A DNA stretch of 64,000 bases from an uncultured Microthrixaceae bacterium (GTDB lineage: Bacteria; Actinomycetota; Acidimicrobiia; Acidimicrobiales; VFJN01). Location of the stretch: assembly GCA_963806205.1 (NCBI GenBank), contig CAWDXF010000004.1, forward strand, positions 202,109 to 266,108, in the 5' to 3' direction. The position numbers were made by a program, and so were the translations under genes. Below the pieces are notes generated by a model. The model worked only from the letters and a program-made list of their open reading frames with translations. It had not been told where the DNA came from and made no database searches. Positions 41,412 through 57,038 of this stretch are shown here, piece after piece (the stretch's first letter is position 1; each line of letters starts with the position of its first letter).

Positions 41412-43476
41412 TCAGAGCTCCCAGTCCGCGGGGATGCGCGGGTCCGGCTGGTAGCAGCAGTACGTGCCCGTGTGGATGGTCCGGCCGAGGTGGTCGGCCA
41501 GCTCCCGGTGCTGCTCCCCGATGCGCGTCATCGCCTGCCGGATCGCGCGGGTCACGGCCACCCGCGCCCGCTCCGAGGCCGAGCCCGCCCGCCGGGCCCG
41601 CCCGCCGAGCCCGACGGCCCGTGACAGCTCGCGGACGAGGAAGTCCCGCTCGAGATCGGCCTGCGCCTCCCGCACCTCGTCGCCCGTCGCCCGCGCGTCG
41701 TCGCGATCCTCCTCGAGCTCGGCCAGCCGCCGGCGGTAGGCCTCCTTCGCCTGGGGGTCGAGCATCTCGCCGGCGTCCCCGAGTGGGGCGCGACCGATCC
41801 GCGCCTCGCGCTCGTCCCGAGCGCCACCCGTGGCCTCGGCCGCGACCAGGTCGAGCACGTGGAGCTCGCGCTCGGGGTCGGCGAGGAGCCGAGCGAGGTA
41901 CCGCATCCCCTTGCGGTCGCGGAGCCGCACCGTCCGCCCGTCGAACACCACCAGCCAGTGGTCGCCCTCGTGCCGGAACACGTTGCCCGCCCGGGTCGGA
42001 CCGGCATCGGGCCGATCGTCGGCGATGCGCCGCGGCGTGGGTGCGATCGACGGTTCGTCCACGATCAGATCGAGCGCGGCGCGGGCGGCGTCCCGCTCCA
42101 GGCCGGCCCGGTGGTCGCGGCCGAGTGCCTGGCAGGCGTCGGCCAGGCCCAGTCGGGCGATCGCCGCCTCGTACGGGGCACCCACGGCGCCCCACGCCTG
42201 CGCGGCGTCCGAGAACAGCCGTTCCGCCTGAGCGGCGTCGCCGTCGACGAGGGACACCCTCGCCCGGGCATCCAGCGAGCACGCGCCGAGCGCCTTGCTC
42301 TCGAACCGGGCGGCCACGACCGCGAGCTCGTCGGACGCCGACCGGGCCCGAGCGAGGTCCCCAGCCGCGATCGCGATCTCGACCTGCGCCTGCAGGAGCG
42401 GTGCCCGGCGCAGGTCGTTGCTCGGAGGGAGCTCCTTCGAGGGCACCAGCGAGGGGCTGTCGAGCGCCTCGCGGATCGACGTCGCGGCCGTGGCGACATC
42501 GCCCTGGGCCAGGTGCACCAGCGCGAGGCCGGGCTGCGGATCCCATCCCGCGTGGTGCGCCGCCGTGAAGGCCTCCTCCGCCCCGTCGATGTTGCCTCGG
42601 CGCATCCGGATCCGGCCGAGCTCGGTCAGCGGCCATCCCATCTCCCGGCGCAGGAACGGCCGCAGCTCGTCGCAGGCCAGGAGGGCCTGGTCCTCGGCGT
42701 CTTGGCACAACCCGCGCAATCGGAGGATCTCGGCACGGTGGACCCGGCAGCGCCCGCGCAGGCTGCCGATGGCGTTGGTCCGCGACCACCGCTCCATCGC
42801 TTCGGTCCACTCCTCCGCGAGGTCGTACTGCGCGAGGCCCTGCAGTGCGCACACGAGCTCGCAGTAGACGACACCGGTCGACAGCGGGTCCAGGCCGCCG
42901 GAGGTCGCGGCGACCCCCGCCTCGTCGAGCAGGGCGAGTCCGGCCACGACGTCACCCTCGAGGATGAGTATGCGCGCTTCGGCGACGCGCCCGATGGCCG
43001 CCGCCGCCGGGTCGCACGTCGAACCGATCTCGCTCGCTTGCCGGGCACAGGACAGCGCCGTCTTCCGGTCGCCGATGAGGAGCCGCTCGTAGCTGCGGAC
43101 CACCGCGAGCCAGGCATGGGCCGGCGTCGCCCCCTCCGGGTCGAGCAGCCGCTCCGCCCGGCCGAGCCAGCCACGGACCGGCGCCATGAGCGCCGTGTCG
43201 AACAGCAGGTGCATCGCGGACGCGGACGGCCGCACCCGCGGCCGGGACGGACTGACCCGCGGCATCGAGCTCCGCGTAGGCCCGCTCCCACAGGTCGATG
43301 GTGGCATCGAGGTGACCCGCGCTGTAGGCGACCTCGCCGAACATCGGGAGATCGGCCGTCCCGACCAGGCCGTCCGCGTCGGCCTCGGAGAACAGGGCGA
43401 ACGCGTCCTGCCACGCCCCTCGGGCGGCGGCCTCGCGGGCCCGCTCGACGACGTCGCCGGCGCTGCCATCGCTCAT
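41412..43476 (-). CDS. Large TPR-like helical transcriptional regulator with a C-terminal DNA-binding domain; frameshift near 43230
   Basis: Helical repeats (GRCRVHRAEILRLRG), then KGMRYLARLLADPERELHVLDL and ERARVAVTRAIR...TGTYCCY. Confidence 0.75.
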
Positions 43477-43542
43477 CGCGCACCCCCGGATCCCGCTGGC
43501 ACGGGTCCAGCCCGCCAGACACCGTGGCACATCCCGGCGCGA

Positions 43543-43571
43543 GTTACCCGGGTAACACCCCTCGTCACGCC
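43543..43571. promoter_or_regulatory. Candidate operator: palindrome GTTACCCGGGTAAC plus GTAACACC/GTCACGCC direct repeat
   Basis: Perfect 14-bp palindrome in a divergent promoter region. Confidence 0.6.
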
Positions 43572-43624
43572 TCCAGGGCAGGGCCACGAGTCCCGTGGCA
43601 GATGCGTCGTCTCGAGGAGGAGCC

Positions 43625-44447
43625 ATGCAGATCGCAACCATCAACGGGATCGAGCTGGAGTACGAGGTGACAGGGTCGGGCGAGCCGGTGCTGCTCATCA
43701 GCCCGGTGCTGGCCGACGGGTTCCTCCCGCTCGTGTCGCAGCCGTCGCTCGCCGACCGCTACCAGCTGATCCGCTACCACAAGCGGGGCTGGGTCGGGAG
43801 CACCCACACCGAGGGGGCCGTCACGGTGGGCGACCACACCGCCGACGCCGCGGCCCTGCTCGAGCACCTCGGGGTGCGACGGGCCCACGTCGTCGGCCAC
43901 TCCAGCGGTGCCGCCGTCGCCGCGCAGCTGGCGCTCGACGAACCGGAGCGCGTGGCCAGCCTGGTCCTGCTCGAGCTCTCGGTCTTCTCCGTGCCCAGCG
44001 GCGAGGCCTTCCTCGAGGGCGCCGGGCCGGTGTTCGAGGCGTACGCCCAGGGCGAGCACGAGGCGGCCCTCACGATGTTCCTCGAGCGCGGTGAGCGGGC
44101 TCGACCCGGCCGCCTGCCGCAGCCTCCTCGACCGCCGCGTGCCCGGCGCCCTCGAGCAGGCGGTCAAGGACGTCGACACCTTCTTCGGGGTCGAGCTCCC
44201 CGCCCTCACCCAGTGGACCTTCGGGCCCGAGCAGGCCGCGGCCGTCGGCCAGCCGACGCTGTCGGTGCTGGGCAGCCGCACGCAGCAGCTGTGGGTCGAG
44301 GTCGCCGCGTTCCTGCGCACCTCGCTCCCGGAGGTCGAGGATTGCACGATCCCCGACGTCGGCCACCTGCTCCACATCGAGCAGCCCGAACCCGTCGCCC
44401 AGGCGATCGCCGAGTTCCTCGGGCGCCACGCCATCGCACGGCGATGA
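43625..44447 (+). CDS. Alpha/beta hydrolase, frameshifted near 44085
   Basis: GSGEPVLLI and GHSSG; C-terminal DVGHLLHIEQPE in the next frame; GAGGAG RBS. Confidence 0.85.
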
Positions 44448-44857: not shown

Positions 44858-46534
44858 TCAGCGGCTGGTGACGGACAGCTCCGAGAGGCCGCGGAGGACC
44901 ATGCGGCGCTCCCAGTGCGGCGTGTCGTCCACCGGGGCGAGCCGGGGGAAGCGCCGGATGAGCGCTGGGAGCGCGATGCGGGCCTCGAGGCGGGCGAGGG
45001 CGTTGCCGAGGCAGAAGTGCGGTCCCCCGCCGAAGCTGGTGTGCTCGTTCGCACCGGGCCGGGCGACGTCGAGCAGGTCGGCGGTCGGCCCCCACTTCCG
45101 CGGGTCGTGGTTGGCGGAGGTCAGGTAGAGCGTCACGTGGCTCCGCGCCGGGATGGTCACCCCGGCGACCTCGATGTCGGCGAAGGCGAGCCGGCGGGTG
45201 AGCTGGGCGGGGCTCTCGAAGCGGAGCACCTCCTCGATGGCGTTGGCGTCGAGCGCCGGGTCGGCCCGCAGGCGGTCGAGCTGGTCGGGGAACCGGAACA
45301 GGTGGACGAGCCCGTTGCCGATCAGGTTCCGGGTGGTCTCGTGACCGGCGATGTACAGCAGCAGGATCTGGGCGATGACCTCCTCGTCGTCGAGGACCTC
45401 TCCCGCGTCCTCGGCCTGGAGCAGGGCGGTCAGGATGTCGTCGCCGGGCTTGTCGCGCCGGTCGGCGACCACCTGCTCCACGTACTTCGTCATGGCGCGG
45501 CCGGCCTCTTCGGCGGCGGCCTCCTCGGCCTCCGTGATGAACGGGTCGAGGCCCGGGGTCAACGTGTGCGACCACTCCCGCAGCTGGTCCATGTCCTCGG
45601 TCGGCATCGCGAGCATCTCGCTGATGATCTGCGCCGGCACGATGAGCGCGTACTCGTCCATGACGTCGAAGACGTCGCGGTCCGCGAGTCCGTCGAGGAG
45701 CCCGGCGACGATCTCCTCGGCTCGCTCACCCCACCGGCTGATCGCCTTGGGGGTGAACACCCGGGAGACGAGCCGCCGCAGGCGCAGGTGATCGGCACCG
45801 TCGCGTCGGATCATCATCTTGGCCCCGCGACGGCGGGGCTCGACATCGGGCGGGTCGAGCGTCGTGACCGACCCCAGCAGGGTCCGGTCGCGCATGAGCC
45901 GGTGCACGTCGTCGTACTGGAGCACGACCCAGGAGTGCATCGCATCGGACCAGTGGCAGGGTGCGTCCTCGCGTAGCGCGGCGAGCTGGATCGACGGATC
46001 GTCGAGGAAGCCGGGCGCCATCGGATCGAGCTGCCGCACGCCGGACGGGTCGACCGACGGGGCCGCGGCGGCGGTGGCGGGCACCGCGGCCGGGAGCACC
46101 ACCGGCCGGGCCGGGCGCTCGTTGGAGCGCCGCAGCCGCTGGGCCAGCTCGGTGAGCAGGGCCACCGCGACCCGTGGGCTGGCCAGCAGCGCGGAGCGGA
46201 ACGCGTCGCCGTCGACCTCGTGCAGCACGAGGTCGGTGACCGCGGTGACGGTTGCGCCGCGCGGCTCCCCGTCGAGCAGGGCCAGCTCGCCGATGGACTC
46301 ACCCGGACCGATCGTGGCGGCGTACAGCCCCGCCACGGTCACGTCGGCGTAGCCGTCGGCGACGATCCACCAGCTCTCGGCCTTCTCCCCCTCGCGGCAC
46401 ACCACCTCGCCGTCGGGGACCCGGCGCGTCCCGGTGACGGCAGCGGCCACACCCGAGAGGTCGTCGGGCGCGCACGCCTCGAACAGCTGCAGCGCCGCCA
46501 GCTCGTCGACCGACACCATGAGGGTGGGAGCCAT
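44858..46534 (-). CDS. Cyclic-nucleotide-binding domain-cytochrome P450 fusion protein
   Basis: cNMP cassette GELALLDGEPRGATV; P450 AGHETT, EEVLR, FGGGPHFCLG; one continuous 558-aa ORF with AAGGAA RBS. Confidence 0.9.
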   Translation of the reverse strand: MAPTLMVSVDELAALQLFEACAPDDLSGVAAAVTGTRRVPDGEVVCREGEKAESWWIVADGYADVTVAGLYAATIGPGESIGELALLDGEPRGATVTAVTDLVLHEVDGDAFRSALLASPRVAVALLTELAQRLRRSNERPARPVVLPAAVPATAAAAPSVDPSGVRQLDPMAPGFLDDPSIQLAALREDAPCHWSDAMHSWVVLQYDDVHRLMRDRTLLGSVTTLDPPDVEPRRRGAKMMIRRDGADHLRLRRLVSRVFTPKAISRWGERAEEIVAGLLDGLADRDVFDVMDEYALIVPAQIISEMLAMPTEDMDQLREWSHTLTPGLDPFITEAEEAAAEEAGRAMTKYVEQVVADRRDKPGDDILTALLQAEDAGEVLDDEEVIAQILLLYIAGHETTRNLIGNGLVHLFRFPDQLDRLRADPALDANAIEEVLRFESPAQLTRRLAFADIEVAGVTIPARSHVTLYLTSANHDPRKWGPTADLLDVARPGANEHTSFGGGPHFCLGNALARLEARIALPALIRRFPRLAPVDDTPHWERRMVLRGLSELSVTSR

Positions 46535-46650
46535 GGGCCCGTTCCTTCCTTCCGTCCGTCAGGGACCGAAGTCTGGCGGATCCTCGCCCGCTCCGCTCGC
46601 CCGGCTCGGACCTGGCTGCACGGTCCGTGGCTCGACGACGTCGACGCCGT

Positions 46651-47196
46651 TCACCGCCTCGTCCCGCGGTCAGCTGCCAGCTCGTCCTCGACCTCGGCGA
46701 TCCATTCGCGGATCGCCTCGACCAGGCGTCGCCCGAGGCGGTGGTTGAGCAGCAGGTAGCGCGTTCGCTCCGGGATGCCGAGAGCGATCGCCTCGTCACG
46801 ATCGAGGTCGGCGTCCAGCCGATCGAGAACCGGGCGCATCGCGACGAGGCTGCGAACGATCGTCTCGTCGTCGACGAGGTCTCCCGCCAGGAGGCGGACC
46901 GACGCTTCGCTCTGGATGCGTGGGAACGCCGCTGGTTGTGCCAACCACTCCCGCAGTGCTCGCCTGCCCTTGGCTGTCAGCTTGTAGTGGGTGCGGTCCG
47001 TGGTCTTCCCCGGCAGGCGCTGTGCGCTCAGGTAGCCGCTGCCGGCCAGCCGCTTCGGTTCGGCGTACCACTGGCTCTGGGCGGCCGCCCAGTACATGGT
47101 CCGCCGCATCATGTCGGCGATGTCGTGGGCGCCCGCGCCTCGATCGCCCACCAGCGCGAGCACGGGGTACGAGAACGGTCGCAGGTCGCTTGCCAT
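46651..47196 (-). CDS. PadR family transcriptional regulator
   Basis: YWAAAQSQWYAEPKRL...YKLTAKGRRALREWL; helical C-terminal domain. Confidence 0.85.
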   Translation of the reverse strand: MASDLRPFSYPVLALVGDRGAGAHDIADMMRRTMYWAAAQSQWYAEPKRLAGSGYLSAQRLPGKTTDRTHYKLTAKGRRALREWLAQPAAFPRIQSEASVRLLAGDLVDDETIVRSLVAMRPVLDRLDADLDRDEAIALGIPERTRYLLLNHRLGRRLVEAIREWIAEVEDELAADRGTRR

Positions 47197-47197
47197 G

Positions 47198-47234
47198 ACT
47201 CCGATTCAGAGTTACAAAGACTCTGGATCGGAGT
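47198..47234. promoter_or_regulatory. Candidate double PadR operator (two ACTC-N7-GAGT boxes forming an inverted repeat)
   Basis: ACTCCGATTCAGAGT-tacaaag-ACTCTGGATCGGAGT; 14/15 complementary. Confidence 0.7.
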
Positions 47235-47263
47235 TTAGACGGCTAGGTCGAAGAGGAGGCCAC

Positions 47264-47737
47264 ATGGCGGCGACGACACTTGCCCCCGGTGACGGGGAAG
47301 CACTCTGGATGTTCGATTCGCTCGACACCATCAAGGCGGACTCCGAGCAGACCGACGGAGCGTTCGCGGCCGTCGAGTTCCTCGGGTTCGAGGGGTCGGG
47401 TCCACCTGCCCATGTCCATGCCCGCACCGTCGGCATCTACGTGCTCGAAGGTGAGGTCACGTTCTCGTTGGGCGGCGAACGCTCCGACGCAACGGCCGGC
47501 ACCTGGGTCTGCGCCCCGCCGGGGACCGAGCTCGCCTGGATCTGTCGGTCGGCCGCGTGTCGGATGCTCGCCATCACTGCGCCCGGCGGATTCGAGGCCT
47601 TCTACCGCGAGGTCGGTGTGCCCGTCCCCGATCGAACACACCTCCCGGGGACGACCGAGCCCGACATCGGTGAGCTGATCGCAGTTGCAGCGCGGTACGA
47701 CGCCACCATCGTCGGCCCGCCACTGGCGAGCGGATGA
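47264..47737 (+). CDS. Cupin domain protein (quercetinase-like)
   Basis: GPPAHVH...YVLEGEV...APGGFEAFY; GAGGAGG RBS. Confidence 0.85.
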   Translation: MAATTLAPGDGEALWMFDSLDTIKADSEQTDGAFAAVEFLGFEGSGPPAHVHARTVGIYVLEGEVTFSLGGERSDATAGTWVCAPPGTELAWICRSAACRMLAITAPGGFEAFYREVGVPVPDRTHLPGTTEPDIGELIAVAARYDATIVGPPLASG

Positions 47738-47738
47738 C

Positions 47739-48212
47739 CTAGCCGACGAGGTCGGACAGGTGCTGCAGCGAGCGGTCGAGGTGGTCCAGCCCGAACGGCG
47801 GGAACTGGATGTACTCCCGGATGTGGGGCGGCACTTCCGACCAGTCGTAGGTCAGCGTCACCTTCGTCTGCGACGGGCCGGTCGTCTCGAGGTCGTAGCG
47901 CCAGGTCCAGCCGCCGAAGCTGAGCTCCCCGGTCTCGGGCGCCTCCGTCCCGGGCCGCCACGCGATCGCCTTCGGCTCGTCGAACACCTCGACCAGGTTG
48001 GCCATCTCGTAGTCCCCGTCCGGATGGTTCTCGTGGTACATCGCCACCCGGAACACCTGGCCGGCGGCGGTGATGCGCTCGCCGTCCAGGGACCCGCGCA
48101 CCCAGCCGGTGCCGTCGATGGCGGCGTGCGAGGACGGGTCGGCCAGCACCGCGAACACCGCCTCCGGGGCAGCATCGATCGTCGTGGACACGGCTACGTA
48201 TTCGGGTTCCAT
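47739..48212 (-). CDS. SRPBCC/polyketide cyclase family protein
   Basis: IDAAPEAVFAVLADP.HAAIDGTG, WRYDL, VTLTYDWS. Confidence 0.85.
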   Translation of the reverse strand: MEPEYVAVSTTIDAAPEAVFAVLADPSSHAAIDGTGWVRGSLDGERITAAGQVFRVAMYHENHPDGDYEMANLVEVFDEPKAIAWRPGTEAPETGELSFGGWTWRYDLETTGPSQTKVTLTYDWSEVPPHIREYIQFPPFGLDHLDRSLQHLSDLVG

Positions 48213-48282
48213 GTCAGCGGGACGCTTCGCCGAACCCGAACTCATCGCCTCTGCGCCTGTCCGACGGCGATCTGCGGCGGGA

Positions 48283-48762
48283 TCACCCGATCCGGCGGAC
48301 GGTGATCGAGGCCGAGCGGCCGGTGGAGAGCTCGATGGTCTCGGTCCCGGAGTTCACGACCCGCAGCGTGGATCCGGCCGTCGCCACGATCGACCCGGTC
48401 GCCACCACGGGGGAGCCGTCCGCCTGCGTCTGCGCATCGACGGTCGTCAGCACATCGTTGAGCTCGAGCGCGAACGCACTCGGTTGCGTCGTCGGTTCGG
48501 TGTCGCCCTTGAACGTCACCTTGTAGGTCCCCGCGGTGGGGAGGGCGAACGTGGAGGGGCTCGGCCGTGTGATGCCCACGCATGGCCCCGGCTCGTCGAA
48601 GGACACCCCTTGGCCCGGGCTGAGCGTGACCGAGTCCGGGCCGGCGAGGTTCGTCGCCGAGCAGAACACGGGCGCGACGACCGGTCCGAGGTGACACGCA
48701 GTCACGGCACCGGTCCCGACCCCTACCGCGAGGAGGAGGCCCGCCAGTCGTCTGCGCATCAC
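48283..48762 (-). CDS. Putative lipoprotein with a BclA-C/C1q-like beta-sandwich
   Basis: RRR + hydrophobic stretch + VTAC lipobox; STFALPTAGTYKVTF, AGSTLRVVN, ASITVRRIG. Confidence 0.6.
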   Translation of the reverse strand: MMRRRLAGLLLAVGVGTGAVTACHLGPVVAPVFCSATNLAGPDSVTLSPGQGVSFDEPGPCVGITRPSPSTFALPTAGTYKVTFKGDTEPTTQPSAFALELNDVLTTVDAQTQADGSPVVATGSIVATAGSTLRVVNSGTETIELSTGRSASITVRRIG

Positions 48763-48820
48763 GCACGCGACGATAGAGGTCCCGCGTGGTCAGGCCGGAT
48801 GAAGCTGCGAACCCAGGGAC

Positions 48821-49288
48821 CTACTCGCCGTCGAACAGAGCGAGCTCGGCGGCGTCGGGGGCTTCGAACTGGAGTGCCCACCTCTCGAGATCTTCACGCG
48901 GGATGGGCACCACACCAGGCAGGGCGCGTGAGTTGCGAACCTCGAGGCGTCGCCAGAGCTCCTCGACCGGCGCCTCCAGGTAGTGCAGCTCGACCGCCAC
49001 GCCGAGCGCCCGCGCGGCCAGCCGGAGCTCGTTCCGTTCCTCGCGCGCCCAGAACCCGTTCTCCATGACGACGCTCTGGCCCAGCGTGAGCAGCTCCTGG
49101 CCGAGCTCCCAGAGCCGCTGCTCCAGCCGGACCCGCCCTTGTTCGTCGTAGTAGTCGATGCCGAGATCGTGCTTCCACTCATCGGGGCAGAGGCGCACGG
49201 CCGACGCGTCCGAAGCAAGTCGCTTGGCGAGCGTCGTCTTGCCCGAACCCGGCAAGCCACAGATGAGGATCAGTCGAGCGTCAGTCAT
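48821..49288 (-). CDS. AAA_33-type P-loop kinase/ATPase
   Basis: CGLPGSGKTT, LCPDEW, ENGFWAREER, QFEAP. Confidence 0.88.
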   Translation of the reverse strand: MTDARLILICGLPGSGKTTLAKRLASDASAVRLCPDEWKHDLGIDYYDEQGRVRLEQRLWELGQELLTLGQSVVMENGFWAREERNELRLAARALGVAVELHYLEAPVEELWRRLEVRNSRALPGVVPIPREDLERWALQFEAPDAAELALFDGE

Positions 49289-49325
49289 GCGAGCCGTTCC
49301 GGCTGCGTCCTGTCCACGCCCCCGA

Positions 49326-49372
49326 TTCTTGCGGCAGATGTCAGCGGTCTTGGCAGAAATCTGCCGCACGAA
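49326..49372. repeat. Imperfect intergenic palindrome (20-bp arms)
   Basis: TTCTTGCGGCAGATGTCAGC-ggtcttg-GCAGAAATCTGCCGCACGAA; 17/20 paired. Confidence 0.7.
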
Positions 49373-49411
49373 CGCAGCAGCGGCGCCAACCTCGTCGTGA
49401 GTGGGTTGTCG

Positions 49412-49858
49412 TCAGCAGGTGTCGTGTCGCCACTCGCCATCTTCGACGATCCAGTCCGCGGAGGTCTCGCTGTTCTGGGTCTCGCCCTCCTTGGGCGACT
49501 CGATGATGCTCACCTCCGCCTCGAGAGCGTCGCTCCCTGGCCTGTCTACGACCACGCTCAGGATGGTGGGCGGCCCGCCGATGGCCTTGGTCCAGTCCTC
49601 GGAGAACCGGTCGAACACCGATCGGGTCGTCTGCGCTCTGCATCGCTCGGACAGGAGGTCGTCGGCGCGTGCACCGTCGCCGCCGTTGAAGGCCGACTCG
49701 AACTGGCGGGCCGAGCGCTCGAGGGCCGCTGTCGAGGGAGGCTCGCGCAACGGCTCGTCGTCGCCGCTGTCGCCCGCACAGCCCGCGACCAGGAACGCGC
49801 CGACCATCAGGGCTCCTGCCGTACGGCTGACCCGAGCGTGTCGGAGGGCCGACGTCAC
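49412..49858 (-). CDS. Putative lipoprotein (NTF2-like domain)
   Basis: LVAGC lipobox; LLSERCR...WIVEDGEWRHDTC; alternative start ATG 49807 with AGGAG RBS. Confidence 0.7.
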   Translation of the reverse strand: MTSALRHARVSRTAGALMVGAFLVAGCAGDSGDDEPLREPPSTAALERSARQFESAFNGGDGARADDLLSERCRAQTTRSVFDRFSEDWTKAIGGPPTILSVVVDRPGSDALEAEVSIIESPKEGETQNSETSADWIVEDGEWRHDTC

Positions 49859-49859
49859 C
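49836..49859 (-). repeat. Degenerate copy of the tRNA-Leu 3' end (att-like site 1)
   Basis: GCGTGTCGGAGGGCCGACGTCACC vs 51940-51963: first 13 nt identical, 19/24 overall. Confidence 0.65.
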
Positions 49860-49895
49860 AGTCCCCGAGTGGCGGCTCGCGGTCACGTCCGAGAC

Positions 49896-50288
49896 TCAGC
49901 GAAGCTTCGTGGCGATCTCCCCACTGTCCAGATAGTCCCGCCAGCTGACGATCTTGCTTGCGGCATCGAACTCAATGACTCCCACGACGTGGAGGCCGAT
50001 GCGCTTGCCCCGCAGGGTCACCCAGTCGATGCGCTGAATGAACACGGTGTCGCCAACAGAAGCCGTGTGAAGGAAGTCGAAGCCGCAGTCCTCCATGCGG
50101 GGGGCCTGTCGACTCAGTTCGGCTCGAATCGCGTCGTGGCCGATATGCGGCTCCTCCCAGGCGAACACGTGGTAGGCGCCATCTGGCGCGAAGCGGTCCA
50201 CGATCCGATCGATCTGCGCGGCATCCAGTCTCGGACCCTCGAACTCCCGCAGAAGCTCCCGGGCCGCCGTCTCGTGCGCCGTGGTCAT
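49896..50288 (-). CDS. Limonene-1,2-epoxide hydrolase family protein
   Basis: GHDAIRA, VFIQRID, VVGVIEF...KIVSWRDYLD. Confidence 0.85.
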   Translation of the reverse strand: MTTAHETAARELLREFEGPRLDAAQIDRIVDRFAPDGAYHVFAWEEPHIGHDAIRAELSRQAPRMEDCGFDFLHTASVGDTVFIQRIDWVTLRGKRIGLHVVGVIEFDAASKIVSWRDYLDSGEIATKLR

Positions 50289-50301
50289 TCGCCGGTTCCT
50301 C

Positions 50302-50718
50302 CTACCCGAGCAGCCCGAGCTGCTGCATCTGGGTGAGCGTGTCTCCGATACCCCATCGTTCTACGACCTGGCCGTGGTCGAAGCGCAGGATGCCGATCGA
50401 GCGGATGTCGATCTTGCGGCCCGTCGGCGGAATCCCCATCAGGTCACCGTCGTGCGTCCCGGTGATCCGCGCGTAGCCAACCGCCCGCTCGCCATCGGCG
50501 ACGACGAACTCCGCCTGCTCGTGATAGTCGGAGAAGGCGTCGTGCATCAGGTGGAGAGACCCCACGTACCGCTCGAATCCGGACCCTTCGAGGGGCAGCT
50601 GATCGATGTGGTCGACCAGGTCGGCGGAGATCAGCTCGTCGACGAGTTTGTAGCGCCGTCGGCACCACAGCTCCTCCGTCACCATTCGGTAGAGACTCGC
50701 CGGATCGCTGTCCGCCAC
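50302..50718 (-). CDS. SnoaL-like ester cyclase
   Basis: DAFSD, TGTHDGDLMGIPPTGRKI, GQVVERW...QQLG. Confidence 0.9.
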   Translation of the reverse strand: MADSDPASLYRMVTEELWCRRRYKLVDELISADLVDHIDQLPLEGSGFERYVGSLHLMHDAFSDYHEQAEFVVADGERAVGYARITGTHDGDLMGIPPTGRKIDIRSIGILRFDHGQVVERWGIGDTLTQMQQLGLLG

Positions 50719-50763
50719 GACCCGAGTGTCTCACGGTCGCCGGGGGCCGGCCGAAGCGGCGAT

Positions 50764-50785
50764 GTGCCGGAGGACCGACTTCAAC
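50764..50785 (-). repeat. Degenerate copy of the tRNA-Leu 3' end (att-like site 2)
   Basis: GTGCCGGAGGACCGACTTCAAC: 17/22 to the tRNA end (51942-51963), 18/22 to site 1; intergenic. Confidence 0.6.
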
Positions 50786-50888
50786 AATCGACACTCCGGC
50801 CGGGCAGCTCATGACCTGGTCTTGTGAGCGCTGACCGTGTTGATCGGTCAACATGCGGCTGTCGTCGTCATCGCGTCGGAGGAAGCCA

Positions 50889-51353
50889 GTGGACGAACCA
50901 GGTAGCGGAGCGGGGCCAGCGGCGGGAATCCCCGCCTACATCGTCGTTGACACTCAGGACCCGGGGAAGATCACACCGTTTTGGTGCGCGCTGCTCGGTG
51001 TCGGAGTGTTCCAAGACCGCGACAACGGCAAGTACGTCACGTTGGAGCCGTCGCCGAAGCTGCCTGGGTCCATGATGTTGACGTTTCAGCATGTGCCCGA
51101 ACCCAAAGCAGCGAAGAACCGGGTCCACGTCGACGTGTTCGTCTTTGACCTCGACGAGGCAACCGCTCAGGTCGAGGCGCTCGGCGGGCAGTGGGCCGAG
51201 CCGAAGGTGACGCTGCAGGACGGCAGCTGGATCTCGCGAATCGCGGTTGACCCTGAGGGCAACGAGTTCTGCATCTGCTTGGCACCATCGAGGATGAAGG
51301 CTTGGCGAGCAAGTACCGACGAGACGGTGGTACACAACCCAGGCAAGTACTGA
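50889..51353 (+). CDS. VOC/glyoxalase family protein
   Basis: FWCALLG, FQHVPEPK.AKNRVHVD, DPEGNEFC; GGAGGA RBS before GTG 50889. Confidence 0.9.
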   Translation: MDEPGSGAGPAAGIPAYIVVDTQDPGKITPFWCALLGVGVFQDRDNGKYVTLEPSPKLPGSMMLTFQHVPEPKAAKNRVHVDVFVFDLDEATAQVEALGGQWAEPKVTLQDGSWISRIAVDPEGNEFCICLAPSRMKAWRASTDETVVHNPGKY

Positions 51354-51450
51354 CGCAGCTGGGCGTGAGCTCTCCGGTCACTTCGCGTCGCTAGGCGAGA
51401 GAACGTGAGCCATGAACGAGAAAGGTGGCTCCATTGGAGTCACCTTCCGA

Positions 51451-51463
51451 GTGTCGGAGGACC
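51451..51463 (-). repeat. Short copy of the tRNA-Leu 3' end (att-like site 3)
   Basis: GTGTCGGAGGACC: 10 nt identical to the tRNA end, 12/13 to site 2; lies before the likely ATG of the next gene. Confidence 0.45.
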
Positions 51464-51508
51464 AAACCGCAGGTTCTCGTACCGGCCACTGGCGGCTCGG
51501 ACCGTGAC

Positions 51509-51835
51509 ATGCTTGCCCGCGTGGCGGCGTCCTACGACGAGTTCGCAGCTGAGCACCGGGCCGAGCATGGCTCCGCCTTCATTCGATGGGCGACCGTCGC
51601 CGGCAACTACTCGAACATCCCCACCGCAATCGCTCTGCTCGTGGGTCGACCGCGGGCCGCTGCTGCGATCTTCGGGATCGGGACGGCAGCCCTTGTGGTG
51701 GGCCACGCCGTGGAGGGCAACCTCCCCCGGGCGGGCCGCGACCTTGCACGCCATCCGATCTGGAGTGTGCGAGCCGATGTTGCGGTGGCCAACGAGACAC
51801 TGAGGGCAGCCCTGGCTCCTTCTCGGGCGATCTAG
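51509..51835 (+). CDS. DUF962/Mpo1-like small membrane protein
   Basis: SYDEF...EH...RW; VGHAVEGNLP...HPIWSVRAD. Confidence 0.7.
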   Translation: MLARVAASYDEFAAEHRAEHGSAFIRWATVAGNYSNIPTAIALLVGRPRAAAAIFGIGTAALVVGHAVEGNLPRAGRDLARHPIWSVRADVAVANETLRAALAPSRAI

Positions 51836-51874
51836 CGGCGCAGGAGGCCCACAGATCGCCCCAGAACGCAGAAC

Positions 51875-51893
51875 GCCCGGCACTGGGCCGGGC
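51875..51893 (-). terminator. Hairpin 3' of tRNA-Leu (possible terminator)
   Basis: GCCCGGC-actgg-GCCGGGC followed by GTTCTGCGTTCT on the minus strand. Confidence 0.5.
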
Positions 51894-51942
51894 TTCGAAC
51901 GGTTCATCTCCGCCGCTTTCGACTGAACCGGGCCTGACTGCG

Positions 51943-52026
<84 letters not shown>

Positions 52027-52056
52027 GTGGCCGCGGACCCGGAAGGGACGAGCAAC

Positions 52057-53708
52057 CTACCACGCTCGAGGCCGTACGTCGACGCCAGACGTACGGCGGC
52101 CAGTCCACGGTGCCGTCGACGGCGTGGGCGAGGCGCGGCACGCGGGCGGCCACGACCACCTGGGTGCGGAACTGCGCGATCGGGACGACGACGGCGTCGT
52201 CGAGCACGACGCGCTCGGCCGCGGCCCACCGCTCGGCCCGCGGCCGCCGGGTCGGCGGAGGCGCGGGCCTCGGCCAGCGAGGCGTCGACCTCGGCGAGCG
52301 CAGGCCGACGAGGTTGTCGGGCGAGGCCGACCGGAACAGCGGGGCGAGGTAGGCGTCCGGCGATGCGGTAGCCACCGATCCACCCGAAGCGTGAACAGCT
52401 GCTGGCCGCCCGAGACGACGAAGCGCTGGTGGTCCTCGAGCGGCAGCGGGCCGGGCCACCGTCGGGATGCCGACCGACCCGAGGCTGCTCGGCCACGATG
52501 GCGGCCATCGGCCTCCTGGGCCGGCGAGGCTCGTAGTCGATGGCGACCTGCGGCACGGCCGTCCGGGAAGGCTTCCGCCAGGAGCCGGCGGGCCCGGCCG
52601 GGTCGTGGCCGCACGCGGTGCAAGGCTCGGTGCGGCGGTCCGGCGACCCCGGCGGGCACCACCGCGTCCAGCGGGTCGGCGAGGTCCGGGTACACCGCCC
52701 GCACGATCGCCCCGCGGATCGATGGCCGCCGCGATGGCCTCGCCGAAGCTCCGGTTCGGCGAGGGCGGGTCCGTCGCTGCGCAGCCCGAGGAACAGCTCG
52801 GCCTGGAAGGGCGCGAAGGCGTCGGCGCCGTAGCTCGTCCACCGCGGCCGCCGAACCGGTCGGCGGGCACGGGGGCCCAGTCGACGTCGCCGTCCTCGAA
52901 CGCGTCGTAGGCCGCCGCCCGGTCCGCGTACGGCGCGGAGCTCGACGCCGTCGAGGTGCGCGAGCGCTGCCCGTCCGGCGGACCAGCGACAGGCGGCCCG
53001 TCCGCGTCGGCGCCGTCGACGGGCCAGCCCCGGTGAGGTCGAGGCTCGGCGGGTCGCCACCGTCGGGCGCCGGTGCGGCCGCGCACGTCGATCACGCCGT
53101 AGGCCGGTGCGGCGAGGAGCTCGGGGAGCGACGCCAGCGGCGACGTCGAGCGCGACCTCGACCGTGGTGGCGTCGACGCGCCCGCAGCCCGGCGACGTCC
53201 GGCGCGGTGCCGTCGAGGTAGGCGCGGAAGCCGACGACCGACCTCCAGCCGGAGGGCCGCGAGCGAGGCGTCGCCCGCCGGCGATCCGTGCTCGAGCGAG
53301 GCCACGACGTCGGCGGCGGTGACCGGGCGGCCGCTCGAGAAGGTGGCCTCCGGGTCGAGGGCGAAGCGCCACGTCTGGAGCTGCGCGTCCGGGGTCCACG
53401 AGGCCGCCAGCCGCCGGCTGCGCCCGACCGTCCGCGTCGAGCTCGGTGAGCCCGTCGTGCAGGAGGTCGAGGACCATCAGGTCGCTCGGCGTGGCCGGCG
53501 AGGCGAGCGCTGGGTCGACGCACGATCGGGCCGCCGCAGCGCCAGGCGGACCGTGCCGCCCTCCGACGGCGGCGGTCCTCGCTCCGGTGCCCGGCCGCCC
53601 GCTGTCGTCGTCGTCGCTGCACGGCGGCCAGGCGGCCCGGCCGCCAGCGACCAGGGCCAGCGACGGCCGGCAGCGCCGCGGGAGCCGGCGCTCCCGCCGG
53701 CGGGTCAA
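52057..53708 (-). CDS. Family-5 ABC transporter substrate-binding lipoprotein, heavily frameshifted
   Basis: CSDDDD lipoprotein start, VDPALA...LHDGLTELD, SPDAYLAPLFRS.SPDN, AERVVLDDAVVVPI across frames; ends approximate. Confidence 0.7.
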
Positions 53709-53936
53709 TCCAGGAGGAAGGCCAGGCCGGTGGTGGTGAAGACGAAGATCAGCGCCACGACGACCGTGATGCGGTCGAGGTTGCGCTCGGCCGCCGCCGA
53801 GCCGAGGGCCGTGGCGCCCACGCTGCCGCCGAACATGTCCGACAGGCCGCCGCCCTTGCCGCTGTGGAGCAGCACGAGGCCGATCAGCAGCGCCGACGAC
53901 GACGAGGTGGATGCCGAGGACGATGTTGGTGAGCAC
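53705..53936 (-). CDS. secG: Preprotein translocase subunit SecG, one frameshift near 53895
   Basis: [21 protein letters not shown]...[11 protein letters not shown]. Confidence 0.9.
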
Positions 53937-53969
53937 GGCGTACGAGGCTACAGCGGGCCCCAGCCGCGG

Positions 53970-55003
53970 TCAGATGACCTCGCGGACCGCGGCGAAGTGG
54001 CAGGCCACCGGGTGCCCGACCGCCGCGGGCTCGAGCGGGGGCTCCACCTCGGAGCACGCCGACGTGTCGCTGCCGGCCGCCTCCAGCTCCTGCTTGCTGC
54101 CAGCAGCGGGTGCGGAACCGGCAGCCCGACGGCGGGTCGGCCGGGCTAGGGCACGTCGCCCTGCAGGAGGATCCGCTCCCGGGCCTGCTCGCAGCTGCGG
54201 GTCGGGCAGCGGGCACGGCCGACAGCAGGGCCTGGGTGTAGGGGTGGCCCGGCCTGATCGTAGATCTCGTCGCGGGTGCCCTCCTCGACGATCTTGCCGA
54301 GGTACATCACCGCCACCCGGTCGGAGATGTGGCGCACCACCGACAGGTCGTGGGCGATGAACACGTAGGCCAGGCCGAGCGTGTCCTGGAGCAGCTCGAG
54401 CAGGTTGACGACGCCGGCCTGGATCGACACGTCGAGGGCCGACACCGGCTCGTCGAGCACGATCAGCTCCGGCTCGAGCGCGAGGGCCCGGGCGATGCCG
54501 ACGCGCTGGCGCTGGCCGCCGGAGAACTCGTGCGGGAAGCGGTTGGCGTGCTCGGGGGACAGGCCCACCGATGGTGAGCAGCTCGCTGGACCCGCGCGTC
54601 GGTCGGCCGCGCCGCTTCCACCCGAAGTGGACCTTGAGCGGCTCGGCCAGGGTGGCGCCGACGGTCATCCGCGGGTTGAGCGACGCGTACGGGTCCTGGA
54701 AGACGATCTGGAAGCGCCGCCGCATCCTGGCGCGAGCGCCTTGCCCCGCAGCTCGTCGAGGCGACTGCCCGTCGAAGTGCACCTCGCCCGGCGGTCGGGC
54801 GTGATCAGGTCGAGCAGCAGGCGGCCGGTGGTGGACTTGCCGCAGCCCGACTCCCCCACCAGGCCCAGGGTCTCGCCCCGGCTGCACCTCGAGGGACACG
54901 CCGGCGACGGCGGACACCGAGCCGACCGGTGCGTCCGAGCACGCCGCCGCGGATGGGGAAGTCCTTGACCAGGTCGCTGGCCACGAGCAGCGGCGTCGGT
55001 CAC
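53970..55003 (-). CDS. Oligopeptide/dipeptide ABC ATP-binding protein (OppF/DppF-like), frameshifted
   Basis: [46 protein letters not shown]. Confidence 0.85.
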
Positions 55004-56110
55004 GTCGTGACCGTCACGGCTCGATCACCGCCTCACCGCGGCCACGGCAGCTCGACCGGTCGTCGACGTCGACGGCCCGCAGCGACTCGACGCGACACCT
55101 CGGCCAGGTCCTCGGCGTAGTGGCAGGCGGCGCGGTGGGCGTCGCCGGTCACGAGCCGCAGCGGCGGGACCTCCGCGTCGCACAGGCCCGGGCACGCGGG
55201 CGAAGCGGCAGCGCGGGTGGAACGCGCAGCCGGACGGCAGGTGGATCAGCGACGGCGGCGAGCCCTGGATCGGGCACGAGCGGCTCGTCGCCGGTGTCGT
55301 CGAGGCGGGGCAGGCTGGCCAGCAGGCCGAGCGTGTAGGGGTGCCGGGTCTCGTAGAAGATCTCCTCGGTGGTGCCGATCTCCACCTGGCGGCCGGCGTA
55401 CATCACCATCACCTGGTCGGCGAGGCCGGCCACCACGCCGAGGTCGTGGGTGATGAGGATGATCGCCGAGTCGATCTCGTCCTTGATGCCGATGCAGCAC
55501 CTCGAGCACCTGCGCCTGCACGGTGACGTCGAGGGCGGTGGTGGGCTCGTCGGCGATGAGCAGGTCGGGCTTGCAGGCGATCGCCATGGCGATCATCGCC
55601 CGCTGGCGCATGCCGCCGGAGAACTCGTGGGGGTACATCTTCGCCCGCTTGCGCGGCTCGGGATGCCGACCAGCTCGAGCATCTCGACGGCCCGCTCGAA
55701 GGCCGGCCTGCGCTTGAGCCCCTCGTGGATGCGGGCCATCTCGCCGATCTGGCGGCCCACCGTGTGGACGGGGTTCAGCGCGGTCAGCGGGTCCTGGAAG
55801 ATCATCGCGATCTCGCCGCCCCGCACCTGGCGCCGCTCCTCCTCGCTGATGCGTCAGGAGGTCGCGGCCCTTCCAGAGGATCTCGCCCTCGCCCGACCCC
55901 GAGCGTCGGGCATGCAGGCCGAGGATCGCCATCGCGGTGACCGACTTGCCCGAGCCCGACTCGCCCACGATCGCGAACACCTCGCCGCGGTGGACGTCGA
56001 ACGACACGCCGTCGACGGCGTGCACGACGCCGTCGTCGGTGTTGAACCCGGCCTCGAGGCCGCGCACCGACAGGAGGACCTCGCGACCGGCGGACGGCGA
56101 GCGGGCTCAC
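55000..56110 (-). CDS. Oligopeptide/dipeptide ABC ATP-binding protein (OppD/DppD-like), frameshifted
   Basis: [49 protein letters not shown]; end approximate. Confidence 0.85.
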
Positions 56111-57038
56111 TTGAGCTTCGGGTCCAGGGCGTCGCGGAGGCCGTCGCCCGATGAACACGAGCGCGAGGACGGTGAGGAAGATGGCGCCGCCGGGGAAGAA
56201 CAGCAGGTGCGGCGCCGGTGGCCAGCGGCGCCTTGCCGTCGCGCGACCATCAGGCCCCACGCCGGGGTCGGGTCCTGCGGGCCGACGCCGAGGAAGGACA
56301 GCGCGGCCTCGGCGAGGATCACCGAGCCGACCGCGATCGTGCCGTAGACGATGATCGGCTGCAGCGCGTTGGGGAGCATGTGGCGGAACATGATCCGCCG
56401 GCGCGAGTAGCCGAGCGCGCGGGCCGCCTCCACGTACTCGAGCTGCTTGAGCGCCGAGGAAGCTCGCCCGCACGATGCGGCAGATGCCCAGCCAGCCGGT
56501 GAGGCCGAGCACGAGGATCACGGTGTTCTCGCTCCGCCCGAGCAGCGGCGGCGATGGCGACCGCCAGGACGATGTACGGGATGGCCAGGAACACGTCGGT
56601 GAGGCGCATGATGAGCGTGTCGAGGATCCCGCCGAAGAACCCGGCGACCGCGCCGAGGAGCAGGCCGATCGACGAGCGGAGATCAACGTGGCCGTCAGGC
56701 CGATCTTGAGCGACACGCGGGCGCCGTAGATCACGCGGCTGAAGACGTCGCGCCCGATCGTGTCGGTGCCGAACCAGTGGTCGCGCCGACGGGCCCTCGC
56801 GGAACTGCCCGGTGGCGCGGTCGGTGATGCTGTACGGCGCGATGAGCGGGGCGAGGATGGCGGCCAGCCGCGAGCAGGACGATGAACGCCAGCCCGACCA
56901 TCGCCGCGCTGGTTCCGGCGGAAGCGGCGCCAGACGTCGCTCCGCAGCGGGCGAGCGGGCACGCCGAGGCTGTCCAGCGCCGCCGGGCTCGACGACCTCG
57001 AGCGCGGTCGACGGCCCGACGCTCTCGGTCGACGTCAT
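56107..57038 (-). CDS. Oligopeptide ABC permease (OppC/DppC-like), frameshifted
   Basis: [46 protein letters not shown]. Confidence 0.85.

Follow-up and report, generated by a model that had tools for sequence, protein, structure and literature searches.

A cytochrome P450 fused to an N-terminal cyclic-nucleotide-binding domain in actinobacteria: a candidate second-messenger-gated monooxygenase family

We describe a family of proteins in which an N-terminal cyclic-nucleotide-binding (CNB) domain and a full cytochrome P450 share one chain, exemplified by a 558-aa protein encoded on the minus strand at 44858..46534 (stop included) of the window, the whole 64,000-nucleotide stretch of DNA analysed here. 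Enzymes gated by CNB domains are known, and so are P450 fusions; the combination of the two is uncharacterised. We found no description of it in a full-text search of the open literature; subscription papers and the supplements of P450 surveys might list it. To our knowledge, bacterial P450s are controlled by transcription, by substrate and by redox-partner supply, and we know of no built-in second-messenger sensor among these controls.

Based on conservation patterns and structure models, we propose with a probability of about one half that the P450 depends on ferredoxin and is gated allosterically by a cyclic nucleotide, likely cAMP, probably at its redox-partner face. More than 150 proteins keeping an intact cyclic-nucleotide cassette on a working P450 would be cAMP effectors of a new class among cyclase-rich soil actinobacteria, and biocatalysis with P450s would gain a natural on/off handle.

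The fusion gene and its family

The uninterrupted 558-aa ORF described in the first-pass annotation of this DNA is borne out, with the addition that it runs on the minus strand, from 46534 to 44858; its ATG start is preceded by a AGGAAGGA-type ribosome-binding stretch. Pfam finds PF00027 and PF00067 in the protein and nothing else, with cNMP_binding at residues 37-116 (E 1.5e-16; 60.6 bits against a cut-off of 27.5) and p450 at residues 203-538 (E 2.7e-28), and all 558 residues are accounted for. On the evidence of PF00027, of PDB matches to PKA, PKG, MlotiK1, CRP and Pat and of the secondary structure of the model, the CNB domain comprises residues 10-136 (46127..46507; this and all further features of the gene lie on the minus strand), with N-terminal helices, a beta barrel and the B and C helices. 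It is followed by a flexible linker (residues 137-166; 46037..46126) and by the P450 domain (residues 168-556; 44867..46033). The motifs that the annotation had named are all present: the cassette GELALLDGEPRGAT at 82-95, the C-helix ELAQRLR at 129-135, and, in the P450, AGHETT at 396-401, the ExxR motif as EEVLR at 434-438 and FGGGPHFCLG at 501-510. The linker is rich in Ala and Pro, as had been noted, and is poorly constrained in sequence (24% median identity; pLDDT 53-55).

The host assembly (3.58 Mb, 73% GC, 86% complete, 4 contigs) contains frameshifts in genes neighbouring the fusion, so the joining of the two domains had to be verified. Both are found in 118 of the 120 best hits listed (query included), at lengths of 546-576 aa, with one partial protein of 506 aa. 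A read check across the linker had been set beforehand as a test, and it revealed neither a stop nor an indel: an independently assembled short-read contig spans 45911-46128, and hence the whole linker, with zero differences or gaps, in a run that may be the source sample itself. A motif scan of metagenomes returned 21 loci, of which 16 have both domains in one frame, 4 are truncated by a contig end and 1 stops just short of a contig end. Together, the best hits, the metagenome loci and the gap-free contig rule out an assembly artefact. Split genes are ruled out as well; among 16 short CNB-only proteins examined, the 14 of the family type are contig-end fragments or out-of-frame tails past the linker. 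One candidate for a split pair (in genome G399), a P450 gene and a stand-alone CNB gene 1.9 kb apart with an enolase gene between them, was rejected, as its P450 belongs to the outgroup.

Two homologue searches and four representatives gave a set of 181 proteins of up to 977 aa. The annotation had held that homologues found always as separate genes would count against the fusion; instead, 159 of the 181 carry both domains on one chain, the remainder being 21 without the CNB domain and 1 whose P450 is partial. Identity to the query drops to 56% among the hits of the first list, and members 45-50% apart remain fused. Source labels, where present, read Acidimicrobiales, Acidimicrobiia, Acidimicrobiaceae, Mycobacteriales, Sporichthyaceae and Actinomycetota; all labelled fusion members come from metagenome assemblies, and the majority carry no label. 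Occurrence is patchy. Of 25 genomes of the genus, 3 have the fusion; 400 genomes of the class yielded at least one more, and 400 of the order at least one genome that has it twice (in both of these larger surveys the best 10 candidates per genome were scored). In a scan of named genomes, none of the at least 80 P450 loci listed had a CNB match, all being unfused. Databases name the fusion proteins “cytochrome P450”, apart from one JGI name, “cytochrome P450/CRP-like cAMP-binding protein”. Two automatically named clusters of the ESM Atlas (615 aa and 716 aa) resemble the present family in combining the same two Pfam families on one chain; they are known from automatic annotation alone, which does not display the order of the domains.

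Trees were built from 119 P450 domains with FastTree and from 41 with IQ-TREE, five N-terminally cut fragments having been excluded from the domain-less set. All fused proteins and the close domain-less ones form a single clade (support 100/99 in the IQ-TREE analysis), inside which well-supported branches force three separate domain-less lineages, one of them a single cluster of 3 sequences. Provided that the root falls within the unfused outgroup, the history is one gain of the fusion and three losses of the CNB domain. Because three lineages have lost the domain, the P450 core can do without it, and such dispensability is as expected for a regulatory module. The nearest unfused kin of the fused CNB domain are stand-alone CNB proteins of 135-147 aa, which are its likely source. 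Single-domain proteins of this kind, about 145 aa long and with intact cassettes, were also seen in related genomes (L112:7794-9000; L131:1682-2116), one of them directly behind a CRP gene, and apparently form a common, undescribed class. One family member (P0126) is extended at the N-terminus by 170 further residues ahead of the CNB domain, which include a WYADP-like motif and cysteines in a zinc-ribbon-like pattern.

A canonical cassette in a distinctive sensor domain

Conservation was assessed in an alignment of 117 full-length fusions, from which the partial proteins P0019, P0021 and P0093 were excluded. Median identity to the query is 64% in the CNB domain and 62% in the P450, as against 24% in the linker, and the spacing from R133 to D170 across the family is 27-42 residues. 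The ratio of dN to dS follows the same division when the query is compared with the closest genome (CNB 0.13, P450 0.14, linker 0.33); against a more distant genome the values are 0.48, 0.30 and 0.77, with the CNB domain above the P450.

The phosphate-binding cassette (residues 81-96; 46247..46294) was placed by conservation and by alignment to 4MX3, in which G82, E83 and R92 correspond to G199, E200 and R209 of PKA RI-alpha. G82, E83, L87, R92, A94 and R133 are invariant in all 117 aligned fusions, and in 40 more divergent fusions G82, E83 and R133 are kept in 40/40 and R92 in 39/40. The canonical pattern GE[LIV]AL[LIMV]xxx[PV]R is thus present across the family, with G82 and E83 in 157/157 and R92 in 156/157. 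Kannan et al., in the part of their study available to us, give GEMALLDGEPRSATVVA as the canonical “Other_bacterial” consensus for mixed bacterial CNB fusions (PMC2246266), and the fusion cassette agrees with it; the same part of that source makes no mention of P450. Core residues of the barrel, hinge and C-helix (F18, G42, G61, V96 and F112) are conserved, and the strands and helices are present in the model. The domain therefore resembles those of PKA RI-alpha, PKG, MlotiK1 and actinobacterial CRP in having the G199/E200/R209 equivalents, the hydrophobic core and the hinge Phe.

The domain departs from canonical modules in two respects. Where PKA has Gly169, the beta2-beta3 loop of all 117/117 aligned fusions has Ala52, so that this marker is absent; the residue at this place in the 40 divergent members is Ala in 25, Ser in 9, Pro in 5 and Gly in 1, making 39/40 Ala, Ser or Pro. 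We take E. coli CRP to have Ala at this position too. An invariant Cys and a Trp-Trp pair in beta2-beta3 also set the family apart, being found in 12%, 3% and 5% of 132 other CNB domains. More broadly, C46, W55, W56, D64 and T66 stand at 97-99% in the family against 3-27% in those 132 domains, and Y/F71 is likewise family-specific within that range. Several of these residues fall in the beta4-beta5 hairpin (residues 61-80; 46295..46354, with D64, T66, G69 and Y/F71), a family-specific conserved surface that is a candidate docking face.

These departures bear on which ligand is bound. In the portion of Kannan et al. seen, Gly169 is tied to cAMP-coupled allostery and co-conserved with Arg209, CNB folds with different ligands exist, and families that keep the Arg without Gly169 are also described (PMC2246266). 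The Ala at this position, the unusual W55-W56, D64, T66 and Y/F71 and the lack of a conserved cyclase neighbour would fit a domain that gates the P450 in response to something other than cAMP or cGMP, such as a different cyclic nucleotide or a metabolite with a phosphate or carboxylate group, for example the substrate or product. We consider this improbable, since families that bind non-cAMP ligands have non-canonical cassettes, as far as the same excerpt goes (PMC2246266), whereas here the G, E, R, A and T are kept, and class III cyclase domains are numerous in the host. Because the residue after R92 varies (of 117: T in 48, G in 37, A in 20, N in 11), the sequence does not tell whether cAMP or cGMP is preferred; analogy to actinobacterial CRP and to Pat would make cAMP the default ligand.

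Among the closest parallels is the mycobacterial lysine acetyltransferase Pat (Rv0998, MSMEG_5458; PDB 4AVA-C and 4OLL), which is also actinobacterial and has one N-terminal CNB domain before its catalytic domain. In the accessible part of one account, cAMP on that domain relieves autoinhibition (PMC8556138). Residues 8-134 of the fusion match 4AVA 11-139 (E 1.9e-11), and among NCBIfam models the CNB part scores best with that of Pat, at 56.7 against a cut-off of 460. The two differ in that Pat has a GNAT catalytic domain, while the fusion has a P450 for which regulation is only proposed.

The P450 core and its proposed coupling to the sensor

The P450 domain has the features of a working monooxygenase. 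H506, C508, L509 and G510 of the haem-ligand motif FxxGxHxCxG (F501-G510) are invariant in 117/117, as are E435 and R438 of the ExxR motif and A396, G397 and E399 of the I-helix motif, with T400 in 116/117. The haem-binding and catalytic residues H249, R253, A396-T401, E435, R438, R447 (in the pair R447-R448), H506 and C508 are intact. Foldseek ranks BioI, PksS and CYP107P2 best (target TM 0.90-0.91) for the model (pLDDT 88.7). The soluble ferredoxin-dependent P450s Vdh (CYP107BR1), BioI, CYP109B1/E1, PksS and EryF share the fold (target TM-scores 0.84-0.93), the motifs and the lack of a fused reductase; they differ in sequence, at 27-38% identity, and none has a CNB domain. A CYP family is delimited by at least 40% identity. 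No characterised family is reached, as identity to the 40 PDB chains listed is 27-38% and every NCBIfam P450 model scores far below its cut-off; because the closest solved enzymes are only this similar, a substrate cannot be transferred.

In CYP102A1, CYP116B and CYP51-ferredoxin, as in the present family, nature has joined a P450 and an accessory domain on one chain. In those proteins the partner carries electrons, whereas the CNB partner is N-terminal, of the ligand-sensor type and free of cofactor motifs. No flavin or iron-sulfur domain is fused here, Pfam giving PF00027 and PF00067 only, and, in agreement with the earlier remark that no ferredoxin or reductase gene adjoins, none of these families occurs among 120 proteins from the window and 18 scanned loci. 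Elsewhere the genome has 5 matches to PF13370 ferredoxins and 1 to Reductase_C. The whole genome, of 3.6 Mb, has about 29 P450 loci, and its domain matches number 31 for adenylate/guanylate cyclases and 13 for CNB.

The lack of a fused or adjoining redox partner at any scanned locus would also suit signalling in the reverse direction, with the haem domain sensing a gas or a lipid-like ligand and altering the binding or release of a cyclic nucleotide by the CNB domain. Allostery across the P450 haem runs both ways in CYP121A1, going by the part of the source consulted (PMC10416055). We give this little credence, the least of the alternatives weighed here: the acid-alcohol pair E399-T400 and the basic residues of the C-helix show the conservation of working monooxygenases, the core is the same in domain-less relatives, and there is no output domain.

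Structure prediction, which the first-pass annotation had proposed, suggests a docked interface between the CNB domain and the P450 that is encoded at the level of the family. With 117 paired rows, AlphaFold2 gives a model of pLDDT 88.7 and pTM 0.90. A control prediction used 44 mostly unpaired rows, which cover one domain or the other apart from three paired near-copies of the query. Each domain folds in it as well, and the pTM is 0.76; the comparison is confounded by alignment depth (44 vs 117). By our own arithmetic, about 0.70-0.75 is expected for two uncoupled domains of these sizes. Confidence at residues 61-80, the beta4-beta5 hairpin, changes from 93/90 in the paired prediction to 77/81 in this mostly unpaired, shallower control.

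The three CNB losses point to a particular place on the P450. In 72 fused rows, 150 P450 columns reach a conservation of at least 80%, and just two of these are altered in all three loss lineages: G494, which becomes D each time, and N496, which becomes K, A and A. Both residues lie in the meander R492-P-G494-A-N496-E-H498 (45041..45061), which precedes the haem-cysteine loop. Fused proteins have G494 in 147/159 and N496 in 152/159, with R or K at 494 in the other 12; Asn at 496 is common in unfused P450s too, for example CYP109B1. In a leave-three-out control on 2300 triples of fused lineages, 92/2300 lost two or more such columns and 87/2300 lost one column conserved at 95%, and since about 4% of control triples thus do as much, the meander signal is modest. 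Mutual information, in which phylogeny dominates, gave no inter-domain signal at the meander and named no interface. The meander belongs to the proximal, redox-partner face of P450s (PMC10416055, PMC9519919), and the accessory domain of CYP51-fx acts at that face (PMC9519919), in the parts of these papers available.

In the mechanism that we propose, E83 and R92 would bind the ribose and the cyclic phosphate, and the C-helix with its invariant R133 would close over the base. The CNB domain would rest on the proximal face of the P450, the one used by ferredoxin, near the meander (G494, N496) and probably by way of the beta4-beta5 hairpin. Ligand binding would then shift this contact and alter access for a ferredoxin encoded at another place in the genome, in the simplest form by lifting a block, in the way that cAMP acts on mycobacterial Pat. 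The narrower version, in which cAMP gates ferredoxin access because the sensor covers the proximal face and lifts off on binding, is tentative, and we hold it to be less likely than not. If true, the family would be a natural ligand-switchable monooxygenase with its electron supply under direct cAMP control. The system is tractable, being a single soluble 60-kDa protein with a colour read-out, point mutants at E83, R92, G494 and N496 and domain-less relatives as controls.

Second-messenger gating, which the first-pass annotation had put forward, we also infer from sequence and models, and it gains indirect support because the two domains are equally conserved, docking is predicted, and repeated loss of the sensor is matched by changes on the proximal face. 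Counter to it are the Ala in place of the PKA Gly169 allosteric marker and the presence of cyclase genes beside just 2/16 fusion loci.

The CNB domain could instead bind a cyclic nucleotide and work through assembly or choice of partner (dimerisation, recruitment of ferredoxin or another protein, localisation), or C46 could act as a thiol sensor, in neither case pressing on its own P450. The long C-helix with conserved R133-L134-R135 is like that of dimerising CRP-type domains, the linker is long and variable, and two cysteines are strongly kept (C46, beside R92, in 157/157, and C21 in 116/117). On the other hand, the single-chain model places the domains confidently only when homologues are paired, C46 predates the fusion, because 4 of the 6 nearest stand-alone CNB proteins have it, and C21 is lost in divergent members; we regard this alternative as unlikely, though the strongest of those weighed here. 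That the fusion is a passive tether, with two independent and uncoupled functions co-expressed on one chain, would agree with the three losses of the domain, the patchy presence of the fusion (3/25 genomes of the genus) and the stand-alone CNB proteins of related genomes. It seems very improbable to us given that members down to about 45-50% identity are still fused, with neither the order of the domains nor the length of the linker changing, that the predicted docking depends on paired rows, and that G494D arose convergently in all three losses.

Genomic surroundings

Across the 16 fusion loci and the window there is no conserved operon or pathway, and even an orthologue 89% identical has different neighbours. 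Class III cyclase or cyclase-AAA genes directly flank the fusion gene at L105:1074-3800 and, on both sides, at L111:600-7078; since the genome has 31 cyclase matches, two cyclase-flanked loci out of 16 is near chance. TetR regulators lie near five of these loci. At one locus only (L090:5917-10366), the fusion gene is followed by genes for an MftR-type TetR, a radical SAM protein, a creatininase, an SDR and a glycosyltransferase, a set that we take to resemble a mycofactocin cluster. A conserved link to the PadR and cupin genes of the window was considered and rejected, as the pair near a fusion gene in another genome (G019) matches the window pair poorly, at 33% and 36% identity. The fusion gene, which has a GC3 of 0.95, behaves as a unit on its own, and in the window a PadR gene lies upstream of it; searches for a sigma-70 promoter and a terminator gave no match at the gene.

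Convergent with the fusion gene is a gene for a 73-aa tautomerase (PF01361; 44485-44703, plus strand). Beyond it, a TPR/MalT-like regulator (41415-43698, minus strand) and an alpha/beta hydrolase (43622-44447, plus strand) each appear to be divided between two frames, and the ABC-transporter genes at about 52000-57000 are interrupted as well; indel errors of the assembly are the likely cause.

On the other side, the stretch 46650-52026 has a GC content of 0.62-0.70 against 0.73 and holds small genes for PadR, cupin, SRPBCC, AAA_33 kinase-like, two SnoaL, glyoxalase and Mpo1-like proteins. A secreted-looking protein of 159 aa is encoded at 48286-48762 on the minus strand, with a BclA C-terminal-like match below cut-off. 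The low-GC stretch terminates at the 3' end of a tRNA-Leu(GAG) gene (51942-52026), and a weak 13-base match to that tRNA end is found at 49836-49848 (E 5.6); the stretch is possibly a small island.
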